Below, one piece after another: positions 1,784 through 17,848 of a stretch of DNA of 17,848 nt (the first letter of the stretch is position 1; every line of letters begins with the position of its first letter). The position numbers and the translations under genes were made by a program. The stretch lies in the UHGV virus genome UHGV-0189394; one strand, written 5' to 3'. The DNA is from a virus. The notes beneath the pieces were generated by a model that saw only the letters and a program-made list of their open reading frames with translations, was not told the origin of the DNA and did not search any database.

Positions 1784-2254
1784 ATGCTGAAACTGAATTC
1801 ATTCCGCGATGCGTTAACAGCACATTGCCGGTGGTGTAAAGCCAGTCCGGAAAAATTCACGGTATTCATTGAATCCGGCGGCATTGAAACCACCGGAGAA
1901 TCCCCCTCATTCCTGTACCGCTACAATCTGGTGTTGTTCGTCATGGACTTCACCGAAAGCATCGACAACATCATGCTGCCGGTCATGGCGTGGCTGTACA
2001 GGAATCAGCCGGATCTTCTTCTCAATCCGGAGAAAAACAAAAGCATCAAATTTTCGACGGCCATCAACGATGATGACAGCGCTGACATTCTTCTGGAAAT
2101 CCCGGTATGGGAGCGCGTGATTGTACGCCGCAACGATGACGGCACGGTGAGCGCGGAGCATATCGGTGAGCCACCGGTAAGCCGGGCACTGGAAGCGTGG
2201 CGCGTGGTGTTTGAAGACATGACCTGGAAAACCGCAGAAGAGGCCGGTGCATGA
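1784..2254 (+). CDS. R: tail completion protein, P2 gpR-like
   Basis: 156-aa ORF directly upstream of the S-like and V genes; size and sequence character (e.g. MLPVMAWLYRNQPDLLLNPE) match my recollection of the P2 gpR family. Stop overlaps the next start (ATGA). Confidence 0.7.
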   Translation: MLKLNSFRDALTAHCRWCKASPEKFTVFIESGGIETTGESPSFLYRYNLVLFVMDFTESIDNIMLPVMAWLYRNQPDLLLNPEKNKSIKFSTAINDDDSADILLEIPVWERVIVRRNDDGTVSAEHIGEPPVSRALEAWRVVFEDMTWKTAEEAGA

Positions 2255-2886
2255 GAGACGTTCACGAACTGGATGCCATCTTTCAGGACATTCTTTCAGG
2301 CCTGTCAGCTGCCGGAATTCAGCGCACGGCAATGAGCGTGGGTAAGGCCATCCGGCAGGTACAGACAAAACGCATCAGAAGCCAGGTATCCCCGGACGGT
2401 CAGCCCTGGGAGAAACGAAAACGCCGGATACTGCGCATACAAAAAGGCGTGAAGTTCATCTGGAAAGACGGACAGGTAAGAAACCTGAAAAACTGGAGCA
2501 CATCCCGGGGACGGTTCGGGCGGAAAATTACCGGCTACGATACCGACGCCGGGGGTATCCGGACGTTTTACAAGGCAGATATCGAAGACTATCTGGAAAT
2601 TAACACGCAGCGCGTCGCAGCAAGAGCATCACGTCGCTCACCCATGTTCGAAAAACTGAGAACACCGCGCTTTCTGAAAATCACCCCCGACCCGAGCGGC
2701 GTCAGTGTCGGTTTTCAGGGGCGGGCCGCGCGCATTGCCAGAGTGCACCAGTTCGGTGAGGTGAGCCTTGTCTCGCCCGGAAACGCCACGAAATACCCCG
2801 TGCGCGAACTGCTGGGCCTGAACGCTAAAGACAAACAGCAAATCACGGAAACTGTGATTGCCGGACTGGGGAAAGCTGCGAAATGA
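2251..2886 (+). CDS. S: virion morphogenesis / tail completion protein, P2 gpS-like (extended, 211 aa)
   Basis: Contains QVSPDGQPWEKRK, VHQFGE and VRELLGLNAKD blocks resembling gpS-family motifs; about 60 aa longer than P2 gpS as I recall it. Translationally coupled to R and V. Confidence 0.7.
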   Translation: MRDVHELDAIFQDILSGLSAAGIQRTAMSVGKAIRQVQTKRIRSQVSPDGQPWEKRKRRILRIQKGVKFIWKDGQVRNLKNWSTSRGRFGRKITGYDTDAGGIRTFYKADIEDYLEINTQRVAARASRRSPMFEKLRTPRFLKITPDPSGVSVGFQGRAARIARVHQFGEVSLVSPGNATKYPVRELLGLNAKDKQQITETVIAGLGKAAK

Positions 2887-3464
2887 ACATTGAGCTTATG
2901 CGATTGCTGGAAAACATTGTGCGGATTGGTGTGGTCACGGAAATCAACACCGACACCTGGGAGGTTCGGGTGCAGAGTGGCGGACTGACCACCAACTGGA
3001 TCAGATGGAACAGCGGACGGGCCGGAAAATTCAGAATCTGGATCCCGCCATCACCGGGTGAGCAGGTGCTTCTCCTTTGCCCCGGTGGCAATCCGGAAAC
3101 CGCCGTCAGCGCGGGCAGTCTGTACAGTAATGACAATCCACCACCGGGCGCACTGGAAAACGAAATGGTCATCACCGCACCGGACGGTGCGGAATTTCGC
3201 TATAACGCACAGGAAGGCGACCTGACGGCAAAAGGTATCAAAACCGCAACCATTACGGCCAGAACCAGCATCACGCTGGACACGCCAAGGGTGGAATGCA
3301 CGCAGCACCTGAAGGCAAAAACATTCGAGCTGACCGAAGGCGGGAAGATGACCGGCAACATCACGCACACCGGCGGAAGCCTGACCTCCAACGGTATCAC
3401 GGTGCACAGCCACGTACACGGCGGAGTCAGAAGCGGCGGAGACACAAGCGGAGGTCCACAGTGA
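2883..3464 (+). CDS. V: baseplate assembly protein V (central spike)
   Basis: 193-aa product with GEQVLLLCPGGNPETAV, TLDTPRVECT and THTGGSLTSNGITVHSHVH blocks closely resembling P2 gpV; position directly before W. Confidence 0.9.
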   Translation: MNIELMRLLENIVRIGVVTEINTDTWEVRVQSGGLTTNWIRWNSGRAGKFRIWIPPSPGEQVLLLCPGGNPETAVSAGSLYSNDNPPPGALENEMVITAPDGAEFRYNAQEGDLTAKGIKTATITARTSITLDTPRVECTQHLKAKTFELTEGGKMTGNITHTGGSLTSNGITVHSHVHGGVRSGGDTSGGPQ

Positions 3465-3829
3465 GCATTGACTACACCGGCATGAATCCGCACGGCACGG
3501 GAACCATTTCAGGGCACGAACACCTGAAGAACGCCATCAGGGACATCATCATGACACCTGTCGGAACACGCGTCATGAGACGGGACTATGGCAGCCTGGT
3601 TCCCGGACTCATCGACAGCCCGATGAATGATGTAACCCGCCTTCAGTGCATGAGTGCAGCCGTAATAGCAATCAGCCGCTGGGAGCCGCGCGTGGCCGTG
3701 AGCGCCGTTGATGTGGCGTGGGATAAGCAGGGGCGGGCCATGCTGTCCCTGAACTGCCTGATTGTAAACACCATGGAAAAACTGGAGTTTTCTGTAGAGA
3801 TGGGAGGAAAGGCAGATGCCGGCCATTGA
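3461..3829 (+). CDS. W: baseplate wedge protein W (gp25-like)
   Basis: Frame is open from GTG 3461, which overlaps the V stop (GTGA); an alternative ATG lies at 3482. Product has the TPVGTRVMRRDYGSL block characteristic of gpW/gp25-like proteins. Confidence 0.8.
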   Translation: MSIDYTGMNPHGTGTISGHEHLKNAIRDIIMTPVGTRVMRRDYGSLVPGLIDSPMNDVTRLQCMSAAVIAISRWEPRVAVSAVDVAWDKQGRAMLSLNCLIVNTMEKLEFSVEMGGKADAGH

Positions 3830-4712
3830 TTTATCTGAACTGCCAAAACCGAACGTTATCGAAACGCTGGATTACGAGGTGATACTGGCAGAAACAAAGG
3901 CATTTATCGTCAGCCTTTACCCGGCAGAGATACAGGAAGCCGTCACTGCCGCAATGATGCTGGAATCGGAACCCCTGAACATCATTGCCCAGAGCATGGC
4001 TTTCCGTGAGCTTATTATCCGTCAGAGAATTAACGACGCTGCGGGTGCCATTCTGCTGAGCCATGCGGTATCCACAGACCTGGATCATGTTGCCGCGAAC
4101 CTGAACACCGCTCGCCTGGTCATCACACCGGCAACAGAGACCAGTGATGCCGTTATGGAGAGCGACACCGCCCTGCGTCTTCGGGCGCAGTCTGCCTTTG
4201 ACGGGCTAAGTGTCGCCGGTCCAACAGGCGCATATGAATATTTTGCCCGAAGCGTCAGTGGCAGCATTGCCGACGTGAGGGCAACAAGCCCATCCCCAGC
4301 CCAGGTCACCGTGGCGGTATTATCCACAGAAGGCGACGGTACCGCTTCCGAAGACCTGATCGAAAAGGTCAGAACCGCACTGAGTGCGGAGGACGTCAGA
4401 CCAGTGGGAGACAGGCTTACCGTAAAGAGCGCTGAAATCATCAGCTATCAGATCGACGCCAGACTCTACTTTTATCCGGGCCCGGAATCCGAGCCCATTC
4501 TGAATGCAGCCAAAAGCAACCTGGAAGCGTGGATCAGAGAGCAGAGAAAAATTGGTCGCGATGTTGCGCTTTCCGCCATCATGGCCGTCCTGCATGTGCA
4601 GGGCGTTCAGCGGGTGGAGCTGGTGAAGCCACAACAGAACATTACCGTGAGCGATACGCAGTCGGCATATTGCACTTCATTCACCGTCAGCACCGGGGGA
4701 ACCAATGAATAA
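3816..4712 (+). CDS. J: baseplate assembly protein J
   Basis: 298-aa ORF, size and position match P2 gpJ (~302 aa); overlaps W by 14 nt and I by 8 nt. Confidence 0.85.
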   Translation: MPAIDLSELPKPNVIETLDYEVILAETKAFIVSLYPAEIQEAVTAAMMLESEPLNIIAQSMAFRELIIRQRINDAAGAILLSHAVSTDLDHVAANLNTARLVITPATETSDAVMESDTALRLRAQSAFDGLSVAGPTGAYEYFARSVSGSIADVRATSPSPAQVTVAVLSTEGDGTASEDLIEKVRTALSAEDVRPVGDRLTVKSAEIISYQIDARLYFYPGPESEPILNAAKSNLEAWIREQRKIGRDVALSAIMAVLHVQGVQRVELVKPQQNITVSDTQSAYCTSFTVSTGGTNE

Positions 4713-5238
4713 AGACACTCTGCTTCCCCCTTCCGCCACAGAATTCATACGCAACGCAGAGCGTGGCAGTGAGCGGTTGATGGCGCTGCCCGTCGGTATT
4801 CGTCATCTCTGGGATCCTGACACATGTCCCGTGCAGTTGCTGCCTTATCTGGCATGGGCGCTGTCGGTTGACCGATGGGATCAAAACTGGCCGGAGGAAA
4901 CCAAACGGCAGGTCATTCGCGATTCATGGGATATTCACCGGCATAAAGGCACCATCAAAGCCATTCGCCGGGTTGTTGAGCCATTTGGTTATGTGATCAG
5001 GGTAACCGAATGGTGGGAAACCAACGAAACACCGGGAACATTCCGGCTGGATATCGGCGTACTGGATATCGGGATCACCGAAGAAATGTACAGGGAAGTT
5101 GAACGCCTGGTAGCCGACGCACGTCCGGTCAGTCGCCATCTGATCGGTCTGAACATCATTCAGGACGTACCGGGTTACATGTACACAGGCGGCATCGCCT
5201 ACGACGGCGACATTATTACTGTTTATCCTTCGGAGTAG
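4705..5238 (+). CDS. I: tail/baseplate protein I
   Basis: 177-aa ORF between J and the tail-fibre gene, matching P2 gpI size (~176 aa) and position. Confidence 0.85.
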
Positions 5239-5242
5239 CGCT

Positions 5243-8164
5243 ATGACCGTAAAATTCAAAACCGTAATCACTAAGGACGGTGCAGCAAAAATCGCCGCAG
5301 CAACCGGCACACCGGGAACAAAAATCAACATCACGCACATGGCCGTTGGCGATGGCGACGGCAACTTACCCACGCCTTCATCATCCCAGAAAGCGCTCAT
5401 TCGTGAGGTATGGCGAGGCACACCAAACAAAGTAAGCCCCAACCCCAAAAACCCTGCTGAACTCATTGCTGAACTGGTGATCCCTCCTGAAGCGGGAGGA
5501 TTCTGGATGCGTGAAATGGGCTTGTTCGATGAGGCGGGAACGCTGATTGCCGTATCCAACATGGCAGAAACCTACAAACCGCTACTGTCTGAAGGTTCCG
5601 GCAGGGCGATGACATGCCGCATGGTCCTCATCATCAGCGATGTGAGTGCCGTAAACATCTCCGTTGACAACACCACCATCATGGCAACACAGGATTACGT
5701 CGATGACAAAATCGCTGAACATGAACAGTCGCGCCGACATCCCGACGCCACACTGACCCAGAAAGGCTTCACCCAACTGGACAGCTCGGTAAACAGTAGC
5801 AGTGAGGCGAAAGCTGCAACACCAAAAGCAGTAAAAACACTGAACGATACAAAGGCCCCGCTGAACAGCCCTAAGCTGACCGGAACACCGACTGCCCCCA
5901 CGGCAGCAAAAGGGGTCAACAACACCCAGATAGCGACAACCGCTTACGTGATGGCAGCAATCGCTAATTTAGTGGACTCATCACCGGACGCCCTGAATAC
6001 GCTGAACGAGCTGGCGCAGGCGCTGGGAGATGACCCAAACTTTTCAGCCACCATGACCAACGCACTGGCGGGAAAACAGCCCCTTGATGCAACGCTGACG
6101 GCGATTGCCGCGCTGACCACGGCAGCCGATAAACTGCCTTACTTCACCGGAAACGACAAGGCGGCACTGGCAACACTGACGGAAGTTGGCCGGGACATCC
6201 TCGGAAAGGCAGCCGTCAGTGACGTCATCGCGTATCTGGGGCTCACGAACACCATCACCCAGGCATCAGGCGCACTTCAGAAAGCGCAGAACGGAAAAGA
6301 CATCCCGGACACCGAAGCGTTCCTGGAGAACGTCGGCGTCACCAGTCAGACGTTCATGAAACATAATGGAGAACTGCCTGAAGAGGCTGACCTGAATACC
6401 TATGGCCCGGTTGCTGCCACTCTGGGCACGTGGGGGAAAGCAACGTCAACCAATGCAACGATCGCTAAAAATTTCCCGGAAGACGGTGCGGTGGGCTTTC
6501 TCGAAGTCTTTACTGGAGGAGCTTTTAACGGAACGCAGCGATACACCTGCCGTAACGGTGGAATTTATATCCGGACCCTGACCGCCAGATGGAACGGAAA
6601 AGATGGCCCATGGAGCGCATGGCGTAACGTTCAGATGACCAGCAGAACCCTGAGTCAGGATATTGATCTTGACACCCTGGGGGGAACCGAACATCTGGGG
6701 GTATGGCGTAACGCAGGCGCAGCCAATGCTTCATTCACCAGAAACTACCCGGAAGAAGGTAGTTATGCCCAGGGCGTTCTTGAGGTTATGGAAGGTGGCA
6801 GCTATTCACGCACCCAGCGGTACACTACAGCCAAAGGGAATATGTACATCCGCAGCCTGGCTGCAACATGGGATGCATCTGCCCCGAAGTGGGGAGAATG
6901 GAATAGCGTCGGACATCAACCTGACGGCGCATGGCACGATGGCGACCTGAACACCATGAAAACGCCGGGTATTTACAGCACGACCAACAAGGCCAAAAAC
7001 GGCCCTATGACGGTTACGGACGGGGATAACCTGACAGGGGTCCTTGAGGTCATAAAACGACTGAGTGGTACCGCCTTTATACAGCGCTATACCACCACAG
7101 GAACGGCGACATTAACACGCGGACGTTCTTTTGAAAGAACCTTCAGCGGTGAAGCCTGGACAGAATGGCGGGAAATCTATAACTCGTTCAGCCTGCCGCA
7201 GAATCTGGGCATCGGTGGCGCAGTGGCAAAACTATCCAGTCTGGACTGGCAGACCTACGACTTTGTGCCGGGCAGTCTGATAACCGTGCGGCTTGATAAC
7301 ATGACCAACATTCCCGACGGTATGGACTGGGGCGTCATTGATGGCAACCTGATAAACATCGCGGTTGGTCCGAGTGATGATTCCGGTACGGGGCGCTCAA
7401 TGCATGTATGGCGCAGCACTGTGAGTAAAGCGAATTACCGCTTTTTTATGGTGCGTATTTCAGGAAATCCGGGAAGCCGCACGATCACAACAAGACGAGT
7501 ACCAATCATTGACGAAGCCCAGACATGGGGCGCGAAACAGACATTCAGTGCTGGCCTTTCAGGTGAATTATCCGGCAACGCCTCCACTGCAACAAAATTA
7601 AAAACCGGGCGTAAGATTAACGGCGTCACGTTTGATGGCACCGCCAATATAGAGGCATTCCCTCCGGGGGTTCCCTTACCATGGCCATCAGACACCCCGC
7701 CTTCAGGCTATGCCATTATGCAGGGGCAAACCTTCGACAAGGCAAAATACCCGAAACTTGCCATCGCCTACCCGTCAGGAAAACTGCCTGATATGCGGGG
7801 ATGGACAATCAAAGGGAAACCAGCCAGCGGTCGGGCGGTATTATCACAGGAGCAGGACGGTATTAAATCGCATACCCATACGGCCAGCGTATCAAATACC
7901 GATCTGGGGTCGAAAACGACCAGTTCATCAGGCTCAGGATCAGGCACCGCATCAGTAATACAGGGGACAGCATCCCCTGAAGGTAGCGGAGACTGGACGG
8001 CGTACGGTCCAGGAAGTGGGTCAACAATTACTGTAACTATGCCCAGTCACACCCACACCGTGGCACTGGGCTCACACGGGCACGGCGTGACCGTTAACGC
8101 CACAGGCAACACAGAAAACACCGTGAAAAATATTGCGTTTAACTACATCGTGAGGCTTGCATAA
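5243..8164 (+). CDS. H: tail fibre protein (mosaic: P2 gpH-like N-terminus, repeat-containing shaft, lambda Stf / Mu S-like receptor-binding tip)
   Basis: 973-aa ORF with GGAG 8 nt upstream. N-terminal ~150 aa is P2 H-like; C-terminus has GWTIKGK...HTHTA...[16 protein letters not shown]...[12 protein letters not shown], resembling the conserved tip of lambda Stf-type side tail fibres. Confidence 0.9.
6388..7183 (+). repeat. three tandem protein-level repeats (~85-90 aa each) inside the tail-fibre gene
   Basis: Units begin near nt 6388 (DLNTYGP...[29 protein letters not shown]...W..W), 6659 (DIDLDTLGG...[29 protein letters not shown]...W..W) and 6939 ([11 protein letters not shown]...GVLEVIKRL...QRYTTTG...W..W). 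Nucleotide sequences have diverged; unit boundaries are approximate. Confidence 0.6.
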
Positions 8165-8910
8165 TGACCTTTACAATGAAAGACGAAGCCAGAACGCTAC
8201 GGGTATTTCATATTCACCCGGAAACCAGCGAACTGACCGGCGAAAGCGACGTATATATTCCACCGCATACCGGGCTGCCCGCTGGTTGCACAACTACCGA
8301 ACCGCCACATATCCCGGAAGGGTTCGCGGCACTTTTTGATGAGGTTCGCCAGCGCTGGGAACTCGCCGAAGATCACCGGGGGAAAGTGGTGTGGGAGACA
8401 ACATCCGGGAATGAAATCACAATAACTGAAATCGGACCGCTGCCTGAAAACACAACAACCGTGGCCCCGCCAACAGCCGCAGGAAAGTTTATTGATGGCG
8501 AATGGAAAGAAGATCGCAGTCTGGCAATCAGTATAAAAAATAACGAGATAAACGAATGGCGTAACGCCATGGAATCTGCAAATTACGTTTTCACGTTCAA
8601 TGGCCGCAACTGGGATTACGGAAAAGAAACCCAGTCCCGACTGGAACCATCAGTGGCAGCCGCAAAGTCCGGGTTATTACCGGAGGGATTTTTCTGGACG
8701 GATGCCGATAACAACGATATCCCGGTTACCGCAGATGAATTGATCGCACTGAGCAATGCTGCATCTGCTGCAATGTTTACCAAAGGAATGGAAATACATA
8801 TCCGGCAACGGGAAATGAAAAAAGCCATAGAGGAATTACAGGACCCCGGAGAAATCATGGCATACCCGGTGGGATGGAAAACAGACACCGCAGAAGGTGA
8901 CGACGAGTGA
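8164..8910 (+). CDS. tfa: tail fibre assembly protein / chaperone (lambda Tfa-like N-terminal domain, non-canonical C-terminal domain)
   Basis: Start overlaps the H stop (TAATGA). N-terminal ~100 aa (GESDVYIPPHTGLPAG, EDHRGKVVWETTSGNEITITEIGPLPEN) closely resembles lambda Tfa; the C-terminal ~140 aa does not resemble the usual Tfa C-terminus as I recall it. Confidence 0.75.
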   Translation: MTFTMKDEARTLRVFHIHPETSELTGESDVYIPPHTGLPAGCTTTEPPHIPEGFAALFDEVRQRWELAEDHRGKVVWETTSGNEITITEIGPLPENTTTVAPPTAAGKFIDGEWKEDRSLAISIKNNEINEWRNAMESANYVFTFNGRNWDYGKETQSRLEPSVAAAKSGLLPEGFFWTDADNNDIPVTADELIALSNAASAAMFTKGMEIHIRQREMKKAIEELQDPGEIMAYPVGWKTDTAEGDDE

Positions 8911-8942: not shown

Positions 8943-9416
8943 TTATCTTACCAGTGTCAGTGCAGAGCTGACGCCGGACTTGATATTATTTGTCAGATCC
9001 CCCAGAGATGAAGACTGAAGGCGCTCACGCAAATCTTCATTCACACGCTCAAAGGTCACCGTAAACTCAATCTTCCGGGCCTTGCCATAGCGATCAAGCT
9101 CTGAGCGCGTGGTATTCAGCGCGGTGATAACGTACATACCGTAAATCTGACCAACACCATCAATCAGCGGCCAGGGACGCCCCGCATACGCCTGAGTTGT
9201 CAGCGCCGTGAGCGAGACTTCACCGCCTGTTATTTCCGGGTAGAGAAGACCGGAAAGCGTGATGGTATCGTCCCCCGCACCGATATACTGCCAGCTTGCC
9301 GAGCGGTTGATCCGCTCGTTCTTCACATGACGCCAGTTACGGGACTGCTGTATCTGCTGGTGTGGCAGCGTGCTTAACTGAAAAACAAACATGCCGTAAA
9401 TCATCATCATAACCAT
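8943..9416 (-). CDS. U: tail protein U
   Basis: Product (..MMMIYGMFVFQLSTLPHQQ...WPLIDGVGQIYGMYVI...KIEFTVTFERV) resembles P2 gpU. The track ORF starts at GTG 9419; I place the start at ATG 9416, but ATGs at 9410-9404 are equally possible (AGGAG lies just upstream). Confidence 0.8.
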   Translation of the reverse strand: MVMMMIYGMFVFQLSTLPHQQIQQSRNWRHVKNERINRSASWQYIGAGDDTITLSGLLYPEITGGEVSLTALTTQAYAGRPWPLIDGVGQIYGMYVITALNTTRSELDRYGKARKIEFTVTFERVNEDLRERLQSSSLGDLTNNIKSGVSSALTLVR

Positions 9417-9421
9417 CACTC

Positions 9422-12307
9422 CTAATCACGATCGCGGAAGCTGTTCATACCGCCGACTTGTCTGCGAATTTCTTCCCGTACCGCCTCCCCCACCATTCTG
9501 GCAAGGTCGCGCGGATTCTGCGTAACCACGTTATGAAGGTGAACGTGAATTTCCCCATCAAACACAGGCGACGGCGCAGGAGCAGATGCACGCGATGCAG
9601 CACCCGATGATGGAGAAACCGGTGCCCACTGCTTAACCTCCACAGGACGGGAAGTATCCGGGGAAACAACCGGAGACACGGGTGAAAGCGCTGGCACAGG
9701 CGGAAGTACGGGGGCAACAGTCGGTTCATTCCACTGCCCACGAACGGCCAGCGCGCGGGGGAGATTTTTAAACACGATATCGCCGGGGCCGATACGCTTA
9801 CGGGCTTCCTGAAGCATACCCGACGTATTGCCTTCGATACCCTTGAGCCTGCGAAGAACGCCACTGGTACCGTCATTTATTCCCGGAGGATTACCACCTT
9901 TGGGATCCACGCCCCCCGTATTACCGCCAGCCACCGGTTTGCCCTTCCCTGCGTTATCACTGGTGGCAGATTCAGCCATACTGGGGGACCATGCCTTCTG
10001 AACCATTTTTTTCTGAACAGGGTCCCACTCCCACATAACCGGAGCCTTTGCAACTGCCTCAGCACGATTTTTCGCCCGCTCAACTTCAGAGGGGAGCACG
10101 CCGAGTTTTTCCAGCACCCATGCCAGGCCGTCCATCAGAGCCTGAAGAGGAGTAAGCGCAAGCGATATCGCCCCGCTGAGCACGCGACCAAAAGTTTCCC
10201 CGGCCGATGTACACCGTTCAAGAGATTCATTACTGGCCTGAACCGGCGTGAGCAACCGGGTAAACCAGTCGAACACCGTGGACACCGCACCCGATACCAG
10301 ATCAAACAGCGGCGCAAACTGAGCAATACTTTCACGAACAGGCGCAAGGCCAGCCCACAGCGCCCGGAATGTGCCGAGCATGAAGGCCTTAACCTGTTCC
10401 CAGTGACGCCATATGAGCAGCGCCCCACCGGCAAGGGCAGCAATCACGAGACCAACAGGACTGAGAAGACCGGCAAGCGCCCCGCCCAGCACCGAAAACG
10501 CACCGGATACCATCCCCCACAGTGCCGGAAGTCCGGACAGGCGAAGGACAAGACCACTGACGCCGGTTGCAACGGAGGAAAGTCCGCCACCAAGAAGCGC
10601 AGAGCCAAGCTGAAGTTTTGCAAAAACCCCCGTCAGCAATCCACCACCGACAGACAGCGCGCCTATGGCCGTTGTGGCCGCAAGCACGCCCCCCACGGTA
10701 AGGGTCAGTGTGCGTACAAGCTGTGGGTTTTCCTGAATCCACGACCTGAAACGTTCGCCCACAGAAGCAACAGCCTGTACAAGCTCGCGGATATCATCAG
10801 TAACCAGCGACACAACATCACTGCGTATACCGGAGAAGACGCCAGACAGACGATCGGCATCACCGCCGAGGTTATCCCGCAGGACATCCCCCATTCGCCG
10901 GGCGGTTCCCTGAACCTGTCCCATACGGTCTGATACCGTTGCCAGCGAGCGGAGAAAATCCGGGATCTGGTCAACGGCAAGATCTTCAATGGGTGTGCCG
11001 AACAGCGCTATCGCCGCATTAGCCCGTTCTGCCGGATCCTGAATCTTCAGCAGCCCGGCAGCCGTTCGCTGCATTGCCTCGCGTGCAGCTGCGCCTCCGC
11101 TGGCAATCGCTGACGACATTCTTTCAGCGTTAAGGCCAATCAGCTCATAGGCCTCAACGCTTGCTTTGGACATATCCGAGCCGCGAATACTGAATTCCTT
11201 GACGGCATCGCCGGTTTTATCCAGGGCGAATTTTCCCTGCTGTGCCATGCTGACAAGCAGCGTCATGGTTTCAGAGCCGGAAAGCCCCATATTGCGGAAG
11301 TGCGTGGAATACTCATGCAGAATTTCAGGAAGTTCAGCGCGCATTTCGGCAGACATTTTCTGCATCCCTGCCGCCATCAGGTCGACCGCCTCCCCGGCAT
11401 TTGCGGCAAGCCCGTTTTTCAGCATGATTCCGGCAGCCTGAACCTGTTCAGCCACACTACCGCCGGTGACCTGAGCAAGATCCAGCGCCTGACGTGTCAC
11501 CCGTTCGAGCTCTTCAGTCCCCACCGTACCCAGTGCGCCAAGCGTGCTTTGCGTCGCAGCTGCCGCCTCTGAAATCATTGCGATATCCGTTGCGACACCT
11601 GACGCCCGGATATTCTGAATCATCCGGCTGTAGCGCTGCCCGTCCTCCGCACTGCCGCCACTCTGTGCCGCAATAAGCGCGCCCTGCCGTTGCTCTTCAA
11701 CAACAGGCGCAACCGCATGTCCGGCGGCGTACAGACCAGCACTGCCCGCCGCCATGGCAACCGCTCCGCGCTGGCTGAGTTTACCGGCGATATCCTGAAC
11801 ACGATCGTAACGTTGCTGTGCCTGCGTGACGCGCGCAAGCTGAGCCTGCTGGCGTTCAAGCTGATCGTTGTATTCCTGCGTTCGCCTGATTGCTTCCTCC
11901 ACAGCGCGGTTACTTCCGTCAGCCCGTATGCCGTGAGCTTCCAGTTCGCGACCGGCCTCCCGTAATCGGGACTGGTGAAGGGAGTACACAGTATTAAGGC
12001 GCTCAACCTTTGCGGTCAGCGCCCTGAGAGTTTCCTGCTGCTTTTCCGTCAGTGCTGTGCCGGTGCGCTGTGCTTCCTGAAGGCGCTGAAGTCGCGCACG
12101 CGCATCATTCAGACTGTTTTCAGTCGAAGCGACCTGCTGACGGGCACGGGAAAACGCATCACTGCTTCGCTGGAGTGACTTAAGCGCGTTCTGTGTGGAC
12201 GAAAGGGATTCAGAAAGCGCGCCGGTCATTTCCCGGGCGCGCCTGACAGGTTGGGTGAGACGGTCGACCGCAGTGAGGGCTACACGTATCTGGAGATTAT
12301 TACTCAT
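9422..12307 (-). CDS. T: tail tape measure protein T
   Basis: Long ORF between E/E' and U with an Ala/Gly-rich hydrophobic central region typical of tape measure proteins. Start placed at ATG 12307-12305 (MSNNLQ...), which overlaps the E' stop; the track's GTG at 12361 would lie inside E'. Confidence 0.85.
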   Translation of the reverse strand: MSNNLQIRVALTAVDRLTQPVRRAREMTGALSESLSSTQNALKSLQRSSDAFSRARQQVASTENSLNDARARLQRLQEAQRTGTALTEKQQETLRALTAKVERLNTVYSLHQSRLREAGRELEAHGIRADGSNRAVEEAIRRTQEYNDQLERQQAQLARVTQAQQRYDRVQDIAGKLSQRGAVAMAAGSAGLYAAGHAVAPVVEEQRQGALIAAQSGGSAEDGQRYSRMIQNIRASGVATDIAMISEAAAATQSTLGALGTVGTEELERVTRQALDLAQVTGGSVAEQVQAAGIMLKNGLAANAGEAVDLMAAGMQKMSAEMRAELPEILHEYSTHFRNMGLSGSETMTLLVSMAQQGKFALDKTGDAVKEFSIRGSDMSKASVEAYELIGLNAERMSSAIASGGAAAREAMQRTAAGLLKIQDPAERANAAIALFGTPIEDLAVDQIPDFLRSLATVSDRMGQVQGTARRMGDVLRDNLGGDADRLSGVFSGIRSDVVSLVTDDIRELVQAVASVGERFRSWIQENPQLVRTLTLTVGGVLAATTAIGALSVGGGLLTGVFAKLQLGSALLGGGLSSVATGVSGLVLRLSGLPALWGMVSGAFSVLGGALAGLLSPVGLVIAALAGGALLIWRHWEQVKAFMLGTFRALWAGLAPVRESIAQFAPLFDLVSGAVSTVFDWFTRLLTPVQASNESLERCTSAGETFGRVLSGAISLALTPLQALMDGLAWVLEKLGVLPSEVERAKNRAEAVAKAPVMWEWDPVQKKMVQKAWSPSMAESATSDNAGKGKPVAGGNTGGVDPKGGNPPGINDGTSGVLRRLKGIEGNTSGMLQEARKRIGPGDIVFKNLPRALAVRGQWNEPTVAPVLPPVPALSPVSPVVSPDTSRPVEVKQWAPVSPSSGAASRASAPAPSPVFDGEIHVHLHNVVTQNPRDLARMVGEAVREEIRRQVGGMNSFRDRD

Positions 12308-12847
12308 CGTTATGATTCCCGGTTCTGGCAGCCGCCCGCTCTCGCCAGGCAACAACCTCACCAGGACTCATACCGAATATCTCTGCGGGCGACCAGTTAA
12401 AGACAACAGCGATATCAGCGACAAGCTCTTCGATATCGTCAAACAGGAGACGAATTACATCACACCTGTATTCGTCTTTTTCTTGCCGGGCAAGGCCTTC
12501 GGCGAGAAAAAATACGTTGCCGCCGTGGAAAGCGCCCCGAAATCCTCCGTGCGCATGGTCGACAGTTCCGCTTCAGTAAGGCGGGGCTCTGTAACACGAG
12601 CGAGATAAACGCACATCGCGTTAAAGTTCAGGCTGTACAGGTGAGCCAGAGACAGACCACGCAGCGAACCACTCTGACGGGCACGCTCGCCAATCTTCAC
12701 ATGTGTAATAATCTGTTCGCCACGGATGACCGGGTTTGTTAATTCAATGAGCTCACCGTTATAGGCAACCTCATTACCATCAGCAGCATCGAAGTCGTCG
12801 ACGTTATCAGCACCGACAACCGGCATTTCGTTTTGTTTTTTTGACAT
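12300..12847 (-). CDS. tail assembly chaperone E+E' (predicted -1 programmed frameshift product)
   Basis: Slippery heptamer T TTT TTC on the - strand (12512-12506) at codons 112-114 of E. Hand translation of the -1 frame from 12506 gives a 68-codon extension (LAEGLARQEKDEYRCDVIRLLFDDIEELVADIAVVFNWSPAEIFGMSPGEVVAWRERAAARTGNHNDE) ending TAA 12302-12300, overlapping the T start. Confidence 0.6.
12455..12847 (-). CDS. E: tail assembly chaperone E
   Basis: 130-aa ORF with AGGAG 9 nt upstream of ATG 12847; sits between FII and T as in P2 and contains a slippery run near its 3' end. Confidence 0.8.
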   Translation of the reverse strand: MSKKQNEMPVVGADNVDDFDAADGNEVAYNGELIELTNPVIRGEQIITHVKIGERARQSGSLRGLSLAHLYSLNFNAMCVYLARVTEPRLTEAELSTMRTEDFGALSTAATYFFSPKALPGKKKTNTGVM

Positions 12848-12892
12848 TGTGAAATTCTCCTGGCGGCCACACGACCGCCGTCAGTCAGTTAA

Positions 12893-13405
12893 TCAGCCAA
12901 GCCCCAGCATGGAGCGGGTGCGGTCAGGCAACACATCCTTGCCATCAACGCGCCAGATGAAGTTCAGCACGTCGATTTCAATAACATCGCTGTTATCAAC
13001 GCTGAGCTTGTACCAGGTGCATTTCATCGCGTAGGTATGTTCGGTATCCTCACCCTGTTTGGCTTCGCCCTTGTCGATTTCGACAATGCGCCCACGGGCT
13101 TCAATATCGACGTACTCAATACCCTCTTCGGAATAGTATTCACCCGAGAAGCGCACACGTACCGCATCAATGCCTGCGGCATATTTGGCAAAGATGTGAC
13201 GGTCCACGCCGCCAACCGCAAAGGAGAGATCCAGCGCACCGTCATCAAGCCCGAGATCCACCGCCGCAGAGCCTGGCATACCCGCACCGCGATACGCTTC
13301 AGTCTTGCGGGTCAGCTTGGGCGGAGTGAAGGAGGTCACCTTACCCAGCTTGTTGTCACCGTCCACAAAGACGGTAAACACACGAAGTTTTTTTGGCACG
13401 GCCAT
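12893..13405 (-). CDS. FII: tail tube protein FII
   Basis: 170-aa ORF (P2 FII ~172 aa); its start overlaps the FI stop (TGATG). Confidence 0.9.
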   Translation of the reverse strand: MAVPKKLRVFTVFVDGDNKLGKVTSFTPPKLTRKTEAYRGAGMPGSAAVDLGLDDGALDLSFAVGGVDRHIFAKYAAGIDAVRVRFSGEYYSEEGIEYVDIEARGRIVEIDKGEAKQGEDTEHTYAMKCTWYKLSVDNSDVIEIDVLNFIWRVDGKDVLPDRTRSMLGLG

Positions 13406-14610
13406 CAGTTACCCCCTCCCAGAGATGCAAAAGCAGAACTGAAGAACTCGTCAGTAAACGTCTGATAGAGTTCCATGCACTCCATAGGCGGAACAGGGGT
13501 GTATTTGTAGCGAATACGCACAATACCCTGACGAAGGCTGGTTGTGTCGTTGTCGATGATATCGAACCAGCATTCCGCCCCGATAAGTTTTCCGGCCGTG
13601 ACCAGCGCATCCAGTTTTGCCTTGATAGCGCTTACCGCATCCTTCGCGTTGGCTGGCGTCAACGGTGAATCCACCACCTGAAGCTGTGCCTCTGCGATAC
13701 CGTCAGCCAGTTGTTGCGCCGTACGGGTGTACACCTCAAAGATATACTCCGCCGTTTCCGGCGTACGGTTCCCCCAGAAACGGAAGGAGCCGTCACCCTG
13801 GTGAATAATCGTCGTCACCTCACTGCTGTTCAGCGTGTTGGCATCGCTGTTTTCATCCTGAAGCGACCAGGAAACCGACGCAGAGATCCCGAGAACATTC
13901 TTCACAGGGATGTTTGAAAGAGAGCGATGCCAGCCCTGTTCGTGGTCGATTCGGGCACGAAGACCGCACGCATACGCCGCAGCCGGGAAAGTTTCGCTTT
14001 TACCGGATGCAGGGTTGAACGCCGTGAAATCAGGCCACAGAAGCATGATTTCACGCCCGGAAATCTTTTTGCGGAATGCAATGGCATCGGACGGTTTTGT
14101 ACATGCCGGGCAGCCGGAATACGCAAAAGCGCGCATTTTGCCCGCAATCGTCACCAGTGCCGCCGTAACGGCCTCGGACTCAAGACCGGGTGCCGCCAGG
14201 ATACGCGGACGACAGCCAATCCCTTCCATCTGTTCAGCAACCAGAAGAGCCTGCATCCCCGTGTAACTGCCATCAGCCTCCACGGTACCAATAACAAGCT
14301 GGTCCTGATTCTTCCCTCCCTCGGTGTCTTCCTCCTCTTTGGCTTCAGCGACACGCACGACGATAACGCGCGTGCTGACCTGATCGGAGATAGCCTTAAG
14401 AGATTTGTAGAGCGTCCCCTTTGTGCCAGCCTTACCCAGAACATTATTGACTCGTGTTAACAGCACCGGCGTGTCAAGCGGGAACTGCTCTTCATCAGCA
14501 TCATCTGCAACAGCAATAATCCCAATGACACTGGAATCAACGTCATTAATTGCCGTCACCAGATCGGTGTTTTCCCTGACGCGCACACCGTGAAATCGCG
14601 TTTCAGCCAT
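13405..14610 (-). CDS. FI: contractile tail sheath protein FI
   Basis: ~400-aa ORF resembling P2 gpFI. Start placed at ATG 14610 (MAETRFHGVRV..., GGTGA 5 nt upstream) rather than the track's ATG 14622, which has no RBS. Confidence 0.9.
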   Translation of the reverse strand: MAETRFHGVRVRENTDLVTAINDVDSSVIGIIAVADDADEEQFPLDTPVLLTRVNNVLGKAGTKGTLYKSLKAISDQVSTRVIVVRVAEAKEEEDTEGGKNQDQLVIGTVEADGSYTGMQALLVAEQMEGIGCRPRILAAPGLESEAVTAALVTIAGKMRAFAYSGCPACTKPSDAIAFRKKISGREIMLLWPDFTAFNPASGKSETFPAAAYACGLRARIDHEQGWHRSLSNIPVKNVLGISASVSWSLQDENSDANTLNSSEVTTIIHQGDGSFRFWGNRTPETAEYIFEVYTRTAQQLADGIAEAQLQVVDSPLTPANAKDAVSAIKAKLDALVTAGKLIGAECWFDIIDNDTTSLRQGIVRIRYKYTPVPPMECMELYQTFTDEFFSSAFASLGGGN

Positions 14611-14685
14611 ACGATTCACCATCAGTTATGTTTAAGCTCGCCTGAATAATCCACTACTGGCGCGCAGCCTTCACGTGATGCGGGT

Positions 14686-14703
14686 TGTGGGGATTTTTTT
14701 ACA
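14686..14703. promoter_or_regulatory. Ogr/Delta-type late-promoter activator box (TGT-N12-ACA) in the divergent FI / D intergenic region
   Basis: Seen directly: TGT ggggattttttt ACA, with exactly 12 nt between the half-sites. It lies ~57 bp upstream of a GATGAT -10-like hexamer (14739-14744) before the D RBS (GGGAGGGG) and ATG 14764, and ~85 bp from the FI start on the other strand. Confidence 0.5.
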
Positions 14704-14763
14704 ACATAGCCGGACAGAAACGACAGGGTACGCGTGGGATGATACGCACACGGGAGGGGCATC

Positions 14764-15909
14764 ATGAGTATCACTGAATCAGTAACACATCACATCAACA
14801 GCGCACTGGATGCAGCGGAAGACACAGTGAGGGTACCGGACTTCACTATCACACTGGAAGGAAAAGATGCCAGCCTGAAGAACATCACGCAGCGCATCAT
14901 GAGCCTCACCATGACAGACAACAGGGGTTTTGAGGCTGACAGGGTGACGCTGGAAATCGACGACGCCGACGGCGAGGTGGTACTTCCGGAACGTGGAACA
15001 AGATTATCTCTGTCTCTGGGATGGAAAGGTGAAAGCCTCACACACAAAGGGACGTTCGTTGTGGATGAAGTCGCGCACGACGGGCCACCGGATAAGCTGA
15101 CCATCTCCGCGAACAGCGCGGATTTTCGCGAAGAGTTTAACGTAAAACGCGAAGTCTCATGGCATGACGTGACCGTTGAGCGTGTGGTGTCTGCCATCGC
15201 CCACCGTTACGGACTGAAAGCCCAAATCAGCGAAATGTTGATGAACATCGAAATCGACCATGCCGACCAGACAGAGGAAAGTGATATGTCATTCCTAACG
15301 CGCATGGCTGACATGCTGGGTGCAATAGCCACCGTAAAAAACGGGTGCCTGCTGTTCATTCTGCCGGGTGGTGGTGTGACGGCCAGCGGTCACGCCCTCC
15401 CCTCTTTCTCCCTGACCCGTTCGGATGGCGACAGCCACCGGTTCCGCATTGCTGACAGACAGGCCTACACCGGGGTGAAGGCTTACTGGCTGGATTTAAA
15501 GTTCGGTCAGAAGAAGGCCGTGAACGTGAAAAAGCGAAACGCGCAAACCACGCAGAAGCCGGAGAAAAGCAGTTCACGGGAGGGCGGATACATGGAAGGC
15601 GCAGAAGGCAACGTGTATGTGCTGAGAAGAACCTACCCGAACGAAGAGGCCGCGCGTCGCGCAGCTGCCGCACGCTGGCAGCAACTTCAGCGGGGCGCAG
15701 CGGAATTCAGCATCACGCTGGCGCGCGGACGCGCCGACCTGTATCCGGAGATGCACGGCACGGTATCCGGGTTCAAGAGCGACATTGACAATCAGGACTG
15801 GATTATTTCGCGCATTGAACACGTCATCGACGACAGCGGCTTCACCACCAGACTGGAGCTGGAAGCAAAAATCGCAGACTGGATAGCAGAGAGTAACACG
15901 ACTGGCTAG
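14764..15909 (+). CDS. D: tail protein D (late control gene D family; gp27/VgrG-like baseplate hub)
   Basis: 381-aa ORF (P2 gpD ~387 aa) with a strong RBS, immediately upstream of ogr as in P2. Confidence 0.85.
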   Translation: MSITESVTHHINSALDAAEDTVRVPDFTITLEGKDASLKNITQRIMSLTMTDNRGFEADRVTLEIDDADGEVVLPERGTRLSLSLGWKGESLTHKGTFVVDEVAHDGPPDKLTISANSADFREEFNVKREVSWHDVTVERVVSAIAHRYGLKAQISEMLMNIEIDHADQTEESDMSFLTRMADMLGAIATVKNGCLLFILPGGGVTASGHALPSFSLTRSDGDSHRFRIADRQAYTGVKAYWLDLKFGQKKAVNVKKRNAQTTQKPEKSSSREGGYMEGAEGNVYVLRRTYPNEEAARRAAAARWQQLQRGAAEFSITLARGRADLYPEMHGTVSGFKSDIDNQDWIISRIEHVIDDSGFTTRLELEAKIADWIAESNTTG

Positions 15910-15950
15910 AATGAGCGCGAGCCCACCCCGTTTCAGCCAGGGGGACCATC

Positions 15951-16253
15951 ATGCATCCTTGCCCATACTGCGGAGCAAGCACCCGCACCAGAACAAGCCG
16001 CAACGCCAACGACACAGGAACAATCAGGGAGAAATACTATCAGTGCAACAACATTGAATGCAGCGCAACCTTTGTGACTCACGAGTTTGTCGTGAGAACC
16101 GTATGCCGTCCGCAACCCACCGAAGAACGGGGAATTATTCCCGCAGACGCCTTCAAAGCATGTCACCGGGGGAGGGATCAACTCAGCCTTCCCCTGGGCG
16201 ATTGCGCCTCCCAGTCAAAAACTGTACATTACGCGCGGGTGCCTTTCGGCTGA
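15951..16253 (+). CDS. ogr: Ogr/Delta-family zinc-finger late transcription activator
   Basis: N-terminus MHPCPYCGASTRTRTSRNANDTGTIREKYYQCNNIECSATF has the C-x2-C...C-x4-C arrangement and surrounding residues of P2 Ogr; GGGGGA RBS upstream. The 100-aa ORF is longer than P2 Ogr (72 aa). Confidence 0.8.
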   Translation: MHPCPYCGASTRTRTSRNANDTGTIREKYYQCNNIECSATFVTHEFVVRTVCRPQPTEERGIIPADAFKACHRGRDQLSLPLGDCASQSKTVHYARVPFG

Positions 16254-16382
16254 CGGCTGGAAGGATTACCTGAAGGCCGGATGTGGAAAGGCCCCGAGTC
16301 AACTAAACGTTAACCCGAGGCCCTAACCATCTACCATAAGCAAGTGATAGGTTAGCGCCTCTCCAACAAAGGAGCAAGCGCT

Positions 16383-16523
16383 ATGTCGCAAAAATCGCTT
16401 ATGGCCATCACGTTCTGCGTGACGGCAATCCTCATCATCTGGATGTTACATGGTTCGCTGTGTGAAATACGGATGAACATATGGGGAGCGGAGTTTGCGG
16501 CGTTCCTACAGTGTAAACAGTAA
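16383..16523 (+). CDS. Hok/Gef-family type I toxin-like small membrane protein (46 aa)
   Basis: ATG 16383 with AGGAG 9 nt upstream, stop TAA 16521-16523. Product MSQKSLMAITFCVTAILIIWMLHGSLCEIRMNIWGAEFAAFLQCKQ has one TM helix followed by SLCEIR and a later AAF block, matching the Hok family signature as I recall it (R1 Hok ...SLCEIR...VAAFMAYE). Confidence 0.55.
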   Translation: MSQKSLMAITFCVTAILIIWMLHGSLCEIRMNIWGAEFAAFLQCKQ

Positions 16524-16616
16524 GGAAACCGCGACGGGGGAGTAATCCCCCGTCAATCGGTTGCCAGGGTAAAGCCGAAAGTAGCACCCTCACACGCAAG
16601 TCACAAAGAAAAACAA

Positions 16617-16647
16617 AGCCCGCAGCGTAAAAACTGCGGGCTTTTTT
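16617..16647 (+). terminator. rho-independent terminator
   Basis: AGCCCGCAG-cgtaaaaa-CTGCGGGCT followed by TTTTTT, ~95 nt downstream of the hok-like ORF. Confidence 0.75.
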
Positions 16648-16852
16648 GTATTCACATTTCGAAGATGTGGTCACTGCGTGGACACAGAGCGATGAAAATC
16701 CTTTCAAATCACAATGTTAACTAATTTTTTTCATTCATCAACAAGGATTTTCACGTTTGTGTTACCTGTATGAGACGAGAGTTAACCGGACAAGTGTGCC
16801 ATAATCTCGCGGCCAGGCATACTTGCGAAGATTTCAGGTATAAGGATACGTA

Positions 16853-17848
16853 ATGATACAACCTATTTCCGGCCCTCCTCCTGGGCAACCACCAGGTCAG
16901 GGAGATAACCTGCCGTCTGGCGCGGGCAATCAGCCTTTATCCAGTCAGCAACGTACTTCGCTGGAAAGCTTAATGACGAAAGTGACCTCACTGACGCAAC
17001 AACAAAGAGCAGAACTGTGGGCGGGTATCAGGCACGATATTGGTCTGTCGGGAGATTCACCGCTGCTTTCGCGTCACTTCCCTGCCGCTGAGCATAATCT
17101 GGCGCAACGTCTGCTGGCCGCGCAAAAAAGCCATTCTGCCCGCCAGCTTTTAGCGCAATTAGGGGAGTATTTACGTCTGGGGAATAATCGTCAGGCGGTC
17201 ACGGATTATATCCGTCATAACTTTGGTCAGACGCCGCTGAATCAGCTCTCACCGGAGCAATTAAAAACCATTCTCACCCTGTTGCAGGAAGGGAAGATGG
17301 TTATTCCGCAACCACAGCAGCGCGAGGCGACCGACCGTCCTTTATTACCGGCGGAGCACAATGCGCTAAAACAGCTGGTGACCAAACTTGCGGCGGCAAC
17401 GGGGGAACCCAGCAAACAGATCTGGCAATCGATGCTGGAACTTTCCGGGGTGAAAGATGGCGAGTTAATTCCAGCGAAACTGTTTAACCATCTGGTGACC
17501 TGGTTGCAGGCGCGCCAGACGTTAAGCCAGCAAAATACGCCGACGCTGGAATCACTACAGATGGCGCTAAAACAACCTTTAGATGCCAGTGAACTGGCGG
17601 CGTTATCGGCATATATCCAGCAAAAATATGGCCTTTCTGCGCAATCATCGCTTTCTTCTGCCCAGGCCGAGGATATTCTTAATCAGCTTTATCAACGGCG
17701 GGTTAAAGGGATTGATCCGCGTGATATGCAACCGCTGCTTAATCCTTTTCCACCGATGATGGACACGTTGCAAAATATGGCAACGCGTCCCGCGCTGTGG
17801 ATACTGTTAGTCGCGATTATCCTGATGCTGGTCTGGCTGGTTCGTTAG
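16853..17848 (+). CDS. flk: flagellar regulator Flk-like protein (host chromosomal gene)
   Basis: 331-aa ORF with TAAGGA RBS; Pro/Gln-rich N-terminus (MIQPISGPPPGQPPGQ...) and a single C-terminal transmembrane anchor (ALWILLVAIILMLVWLVR), matching enterobacterial Flk as I recall it. Complete gene, stop TAG 17846-17848. Confidence 0.7.
   Translation: MIQPISGPPPGQPPGQGDNLPSGAGNQPLSSQQRTSLESLMTKVTSLTQQQRAELWAGIRHDIGLSGDSPLLSRHFPAAEHNLAQRLLAAQKSHSARQLLAQLGEYLRLGNNRQAVTDYIRHNFGQTPLNQLSPEQLKTILTLLQEGKMVIPQPQQREATDRPLLPAEHNALKQLVTKLAAATGEPSKQIWQSMLELSGVKDGELIPAKLFNHLVTWLQARQTLSQQNTPTLESLQMALKQPLDASELAALSAYIQQKYGLSAQSSLSSAQAEDILNQLYQRRVKGIDPRDMQPLLNPFPPMMDTLQNMATRPALWILLVAIILMLVWLVR

Follow-up and report, generated by a model that had tools for sequence, protein, structure and literature searches.

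We analyzed a stretch of 17,848 nt from the virus genome UHGV-0189394, hereafter the window, to whose full length all coordinates refer unless another genome is named. Pfam scans and a listing of the open reading frames identified it as the late region, on the right arm, of a P2-like (Peduoviridae) Escherichia prophage. The plus strand carries the genes R, S, V, W, J, I and H and one for tail-fibre assembly (1784–8910); U, T, E, FII and FI follow on the minus strand (8943–14610). This second block is headed by the tail sheath gene FI (13405–14610, minus strand) and is read FI-FII-E/E'-T-U from 14610 down to 8943; its products matched Phage_sheath_1, Phage_tube, Phage_TAC_7 (weakly), PhageMin_Tail and Phage_P2_GpU. 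To its right, on the plus strand, are D, the late control D or baseplate hub gene (14764–15909; Phage_GPD, E = 6e-16), the product of which is 48% identical to P2 gpD, and a gene for an Ogr/Delta-type zinc-finger activator of 100 aa (15951–16253; Ogr_Delta, E = 6e-16). FI, FII, E, T, U, D and ogr are co-directional in P2, whereas the FI–U block is inverted in the window, and FI and D(-ogr) therefore diverge over a spacer of 153 bp. This spacer is the sole intergenic gap between two divergent late units, with the sheath–tube–chaperone–tape measure–U block on one side and D on the other.

The limits of the spacer (14611–14763) had been given correctly in an earlier annotation made from the letters alone (the sequence-only reading). 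D starts at 14764, behind the Shine-Dalgarno sequence GGGAGGGG (14752–14759). FI most likely starts at the ATG at 14610, not at the in-frame ATG located farther upstream at 14622, because homologues align from that residue and the RefSeq start in E. coli SCU-172 is equivalent.

As that reading had also noted, the spacer contains a single exact TGT-N12-ACA element (TGT at 14686–14688, ACA at 14701–14703). The Ogr relatives 186 B, P4 delta and PSP3 Pag are small activators with a C4 zinc finger, and their sites of action are TGT-N12-ACA elements near position −55 of late promoters. In the window, the element forms the core (14686–14703, centre 14694.5) of an extended dyad, GTTGT-N12-ACAAC (14684–14705, assigned to neither strand), which lies upstream of both genes and which we refer to as the box. 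It could be argued that the TGT-N12-ACA match arose by chance and that both genes are transcribed from ordinary constitutive promoters. Indeed, the bare motif occurs three times in the window compared with 4.08 expected, a count that is not above chance and is thus uninformative. The extended dyad, however, occurs once compared with 0.03 expected, and any match to it was found in only 6 of 200 shuffled sequences. Moreover, no consensus sigma-70 promoter was detected from 14300 to 16900, compared with 1.5 expected, which fits activator-dependent promoters, and the box is conserved in place across genera (see below). In this respect it is unlike a second near-perfect dyad (one mismatch) at 1594–1615, which we considered as a possible R–G promoter and rejected as a chance match. 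That dyad lies inside the DUF1378 open reading frame, has no −10-like hexamer at 35–40 bp on either side and is destroyed by a 12-bp gap in the closest relative; it illustrates what a chance site looks like and is a useful negative control. We accordingly give hardly any credence to the explanation by chance.

Several other candidates in and around the spacer were rejected. The sole one-mismatch match in the spacer (CGT..ACA, 14733–14750) overlaps the D −10 region, and the D-side flanks of the relatives vary there, so that it is not a conserved second box. A CRP site (TGTGA-N6-TCACA, that is, TGT-N10-ACA) differs from the box in its spacing, which is N12 in the latter. A terminator-like hairpin on the minus strand (14751–14728), located upstream of the predicted start of FI, was judged non-functional; its stem is weak and its T run poor. 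A scan of the whole window against Rfam yielded no match.

Each side of the box carries a −10-like hexamer at the same distance. On the FI side, GATTAT (14646–14651, minus strand) is located 35–40 bp from the left edge of the box, and a weak −35-like element (14669–14675, minus strand; cTCACg on the plus strand, cGTGAag on the FI strand) is located 17 bp upstream of it. This element forms an island of conservation in the alignment of relatives described below (columns 47–52), and cTCACg/GTGAAG may act as the −35 of the FI side. On the D side, a TG (14735–14736) is followed by G and then by GATGAT (14738–14743), which together make up a putative extended −10 element (14735–14743, plus strand), again with the hexamer 35–40 bp from the right edge of the box. 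Both hexamers match the −10 consensus at 4/6 positions, including A2 and T6, and they are mirror images about the centre of the box (±43.5 to 48.5, on the two strands). The region thus combines recognizable −10 elements with poor −35 elements, the FI side having no more than the weak −35-like GTGAAG. The sequence-only reading had placed the box ~57 bp upstream of a plausible −10 for D; this figure is obtained only if the count runs from the box's first base to the last base of GATGAT. Relative to the centre of the box, the hexamer lies at +43.5 to +48.5, and for a start at about 14750 the box would then be near −55.5.

From the geometry of P2 (see below), we predicted that transcription of FI starts at 14639 (minus strand), 47 bp from the edge of the box as at P2 pP, and that transcription of D starts at 14750 (plus strand). 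The two predicted starts are 111 bp apart, and the centre of the box is predicted to lie at about −55.5 of both, so that a single box between the two divergent late units is equidistant from their putative promoters. The predicted FI leader, from 14639 to the ATG at 14610, would be ~29 nt long, and the predicted D leader would be short (~14 nt) and include the Shine-Dalgarno sequence.

A closely similar arrangement is annotated at another place in P2. In the RefSeq entry NC_001895, one 'activator binding site; pO, pP promoters' (3057–3087) is located between two divergent starts mapped 111 bp apart, that of the P operon at 3016 on the minus strand and that of the O operon at 3127 on the plus strand. 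The sequence of this site is TGT(3063)-N12-CCA(3080); each start is 47 bp from the edge of the box, or 55.5 bp from its centre, and the hexamers TAGCCT (P side) and GAAACT (O side) occupy the positions 35–40 bp from the edges. The P2 pP/pO region and the FI/D spacer of the window therefore have in common a single partly symmetric site between divergent late operons, hexamers at 35–40 bp, the lack of a good −35 element and an Ogr-family activator encoded in the same genome. The geometry of the hexamers is alike base for base, and the spacing of 111 bp between starts, mapped in P2, is the one predicted in the window. The two regions differ in the genes served (terminase/portal versus scaffold/capsid in P2, the tail sheath operon versus D-ogr in the window), in the right half-site (CCA at the P2 P/O site, ACA in the window) and in the conserved TG of the extended −10, which is found on the D side of the window but at neither pO nor pP. 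The sequence-only reading had described the sharing of one site as an arrangement that canonical P2 does not need. This statement does not hold in general, since P2 already has one shared site at P/O; P2 has no need of it at FI/D specifically, because FI to D form one operon there.

The P2 promoter that the FI side most resembles is pF, from which the homologous tail sheath genes are transcribed as one operon (FI FII E E' T U D) and which has a TGT-N12-CCA element upstream, ~57 bp from the start (17626–17628). In P2 pF and in the window alike, the half-site farther from FI is the strong GTTGT and the nearer one is weak. However, P2 pF acts in one direction and its operon ends with D, whereas in the window the FI–U block is inverted, D is separated from it and the site faces two promoters. 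Among other phages, one 18-bp TGT-N12-ACA-like site (4381–4398) in the Stenotrophomonas phage Smp131 was read in both directions for the putative divergent promoters PP'/PO', and the authors also noted rearranged tail operons with boxes of their own (PMC3931495). Smp131 differs from the window in that it belongs to another host group, the prediction was purely computational and an FI/D pairing was not described.

We searched viral and genome collections with the D protein and obtained 154 loci. FI was divergent from D at every locus where D was at least 61% identical (96 loci including the window), whereas U and D were in tandem at every locus where D was at most 52% identical, P2 included. 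The 96 divergent loci were found in Escherichia, Salmonella, Klebsiella, Citrobacter, Edwardsiella, Serratia, Pantoea, Brenneria, Rouxiella and others. Among named phages, the divergent layout was present in at least five ICTV genera of Peduoviridae: Novemvirus (phiT5282H), Xuanwuvirus (P88 and 520873), Reipivirus (ST16-OXA48phi5.4), Reginaelenavirus (3LV2017) and Senquatrovirus (SEN4/SEN5). In the literature, we found no paper that discusses a shared FI/D site and no start-site, Ogr-binding or Ogr-dependence data for any phage with divergent FI and D; the P88 paper mentions no promoters.

We then aligned 73 distinct spacer sequences, anchored on the conserved ACAAC half-site. T[G/C]T-N12-ACA was in register in all 73, and the ACAAC half was nearly invariant. 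The left half-site was TCT rather than TGT in most relatives, and the site is thus only partly symmetric. The G/C in this half-site is tolerated rather than specificity-determining, because the loci L012 and L013 have TCT and TGT, respectively, at FI/D and encode nearly identical Ogr proteins.

The register of the hexamers was computed for 21 representatives that were <80% identical over 142 nt. The pattern NANNNT occurred on the FI side at offset 35 in 21/21 representatives, making it the best-conserved feature of the spacer, and on the D side in 21/21 at offset 35 (67%) or 36 (33%), although these counts overstate the statistical weight because related sequences are not independent. At all other offsets, the background frequency of NANNNT was at most 0.29. 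The distance from the box to the start codons varied (FI ATG at +73 to +80, D ATG at +60 to +68), whereas the distance from the box to the hexamer was constant on either side, within 1 bp on the D side. Since the offsets remained fixed while the surrounding sequence diverged, it appears that no insertion or deletion of more than 1 bp is tolerated between the box and either hexamer. Both promoter halves thus appear to be under selection with their register kept, and it is this constancy on the two sides that argues most strongly for a coupling of both promoters to the box.

These observations bear on the possibility that the box serves D-ogr only and that FI is transcribed from another late promoter or from an unrecognised site. 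The strong ACAAC half does face D, as such an arrangement would lead us to expect. However, it would leave the invariant offset of the FI-side hexamer without a reason, the spacer contains no other box, and the order of strong and weak half-sites towards FI is that of P2 pF. In addition, FI heads its block and nothing lies upstream of it on that strand. We regard a box restricted to D-ogr as very improbable.

The reverse possibility is that the box serves only the FI operon, as an ancestral P2-type F promoter, and that D-ogr is transcribed from an activator-free extended −10 element (TGnGATGAT). Extended −10 promoters can function without a −35 element or an activator. The TG one base upstream of the D-side hexamer was kept in 20/21 representatives (by eye), and ogr must be made before any Ogr exists, both of which are in keeping with an activator-free D promoter. 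If the D promoter were independent of the box, however, its distance from the box could drift, yet it was 35–36 bp in every representative, as at P2 pO and pP. Furthermore, the better-conserved half-site, ACAAC, is the one nearest D, and ogr appears to have a −10 element of its own for early supply (see below). An activator-free D promoter is therefore an unlikely, though not negligible, explanation.

The same clade also offers a comparison with its own P/O spacers. In six independent genomes (phiT5282H, P88, ST16-OXA48phi5.4, 3LV2017, SEN5 and the E. coli SCU-172 prophage), the P/O spacer contained a box of the same type, T[G/C]T-N12-ACAAC, with hexamers at 35–36 bp on both sides, and the same hexamer peak was obtained for 10 representative P/O spacers from IMG/VR. 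The IMG/VR contigs added just two further lineages in which P/O and FI/D could be paired, most hits being P88-like. The P/O and FI/D boxes of a given phage are similar: in phiT5282H, TCTGGCC..CGACAACAAAA was found in the P/O box and the FI/D box alike, and in SCU-172 both boxes contained ..GTTCTTACAAC. The flanking sequence differs, however. At P/O, a GC-rich run, CGCGCGCG, is located on the side of the weak half, but at FI/D it is on the side of the strong half, which indicates that the FI/D site is not a simple copy of the P/O site. The choice between TGT and TCT was concordant between P/O and FI/D in 7/7 lineages. We set this co-variation aside as evidence of a shared ligand, because the nearly identical Ogr proteins of L012 (TCT) and L013 (TGT) suggest that common descent explains it better.

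When five complete or near-complete genomes from the clade were scanned for the pattern, the P/O and FI/D boxes were the only ones with −10-like hexamers on both flanks; a further, one-sided site was present upstream of V in SEN5. Thus, four late units in the clade seem to be served by two two-sided sites. In the window, R is not preceded by an Ogr-type box, and R–G may depend on read-through from the O promoter.

Taken together, the register of box and hexamers in the relatives and the geometry of P2 pP/pO give comparative support to the proposal of the sequence-only reading that one dyad-symmetric site could activate both the FI and the D units. From these comparisons we infer, with good confidence, that the FI/D spacer is a bidirectional, Ogr-dependent late promoter region with one shared dyad site. 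The Ogr-family protein encoded at 15951–16253, the presumed ligand of the box, would bind the single dyad GTTGT-N12-ACAAC and, from about −55.5, recruit RNA polymerase to two weak promoters that lack a good −35 element. The leftward promoter, with the −10 GATTAT and a start near 14639, would lead into FI-FII-E-T-U, and the rightward promoter, with the extended −10 TGgGATGAT and a start near 14750, would lead into D and then ogr. Contact with the C-terminal domain of the RNA polymerase alpha subunit is known from P2 genetics (rpoA109 and ogr suppressors). For the window, we infer the same contact, as well as Ogr binding and both start sites, by analogy with P2.

With regard to origin, the inversion of FI–U in this clade separated D from the ancestral F promoter. 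The activator site of that promoter appears to have turned into one that acts on both sides, with a −10 for D placed equally far away on the opposite flank; the FI side resembles the ancestral F promoter, its strong GTTGT half being distal as in P2 pF. The extended −10 on the D side may confer slight Ogr-independent activity, and read-through from the D promoter into ogr could add positive feedback. In P2, read-through from pF is thought to provide such feedback for ogr.

The presumed cognate activator is encoded in the same element as the box. The Ogr protein of the window has four cysteines in the arrangement CX2CX24CX4C and is 46% identical to P2 Ogr over residues 1–54. It differs from 186 B, P4 delta and PSP3 Pag in this cysteine spacing, in its length of 100 aa and in a C-terminal extension.

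The sequence-only reading had treated D and ogr as one transcription unit. The read-through from the D promoter proposed above is compatible with this view, but the unit is probably incomplete, as a conserved −10-like hexamer lies upstream of ogr. This hexamer, TAGAAT (15907–15912, plus strand), overlaps the stop codon of D, is situated 39–44 nt upstream of the ogr ATG and is a candidate −10 element of a separate ogr promoter. TA[G/A]AAT or CATAAT was found ~40 nt upstream of the ogr ATG in 19 representative relatives, and an ogr promoter is annotated at the corresponding position of P2, between D and ogr. Thus, ogr has probably retained a separate promoter, as it has in P2, and would also be transcribed by read-through from the D promoter. 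It is conceivable, although we hold this only as a tentative idea, that a regulon condensed on two two-sided Ogr sites, together with an activator gene located behind an Ogr-dependent D promoter with weak Ogr-independent firing and equipped with a promoter of its own, constitutes a positive-feedback, switch-like late trigger that is wired unlike that of P2.

The shared-site design is already known from P2 P/O, and the inverted layout is a common one that also occurs in curated genomes. The finding is thus worth a line in an annotation, would not surprise a P2 specialist and reveals no new mechanism. Nevertheless, it shows how Ogr control of the late genes could have been maintained in a P2-like phage whose F operon had been split by an inversion: this phage appears to have reused its own P/O design, in which one activator site is flanked by mirror-image −10 elements. 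It also provides an annotation rule for the clade, namely T[G/C]T-N12-ACAAC with NANNNT 35–36 bp away on both sides, and a natural test case for one small zinc-finger activator that would drive two polymerases in opposite directions.

Additional features were observed around ogr. In many relatives, the ogr leader (e.g. ~7870–7907 in L001) contains an inverted repeat, GGAGTTCAACTCC, adjoining the Shine-Dalgarno sequence GGGGAG, and in the window the corresponding leader (15920–15950) contains CCCC-N10-GGGG. This repeat could form a hairpin that affects ogr translation or mRNA stability. The 100 aa of the window Ogr compare with about 82, and its C-terminal tail, ..GDCASQSKTVHYARVPFG (16190–16253), is common to the SCU-172 prophage and to L007, whose Ogr is otherwise only 59% identical. 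Because the tail runs into a hok/mok-like module, it may represent read-through into conserved DNA upstream of hok. This toxin module of the hok/mok type is located at the end of the prophage (16226–16530), contains a hok-like open reading frame (16384–16524) and is 85–90% identical to modules in P88, Stx phages and others; it is annotated as Hok/Gef in SCU-172. The junction between prophage and chromosome lies at ~16654, and a strong two-way terminator hairpin is present just inside it (16615–16644). The remaining sequence (16654–17848) is Escherichia core DNA with flk and yfcJ, and each of the 5,426 complete E. coli genomes contained it at 95–99% identity.

At the opposite end of the window, accessory genes (45–1705) are inserted between the lysis genes and R. 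They include a SASA/DUF6645 esterase-like open reading frame (45–1421), which runs off the start of the window, and the DUF1378 open reading frame of 55 aa (1538–1705). A hairpin at 1431–1455 (CCCTCCGC-CATG-CGGAGGG), preceded by A7 on the plus strand, is conserved in SCU-172; on the minus strand this sequence reads as a textbook intrinsic terminator, even though the genes on either side of it are both plus-strand genes. Finally, in the Xuanwuvirus genomes L165 (P88; 25416–27564) and L168 (25102–27209), the tail-fibre genes are separated from the inverted U–FI block by a DNA invertase together with an alternative tail-fibre cassette. The window is without this insertion, and G (8164–8910) abuts U at 8943.
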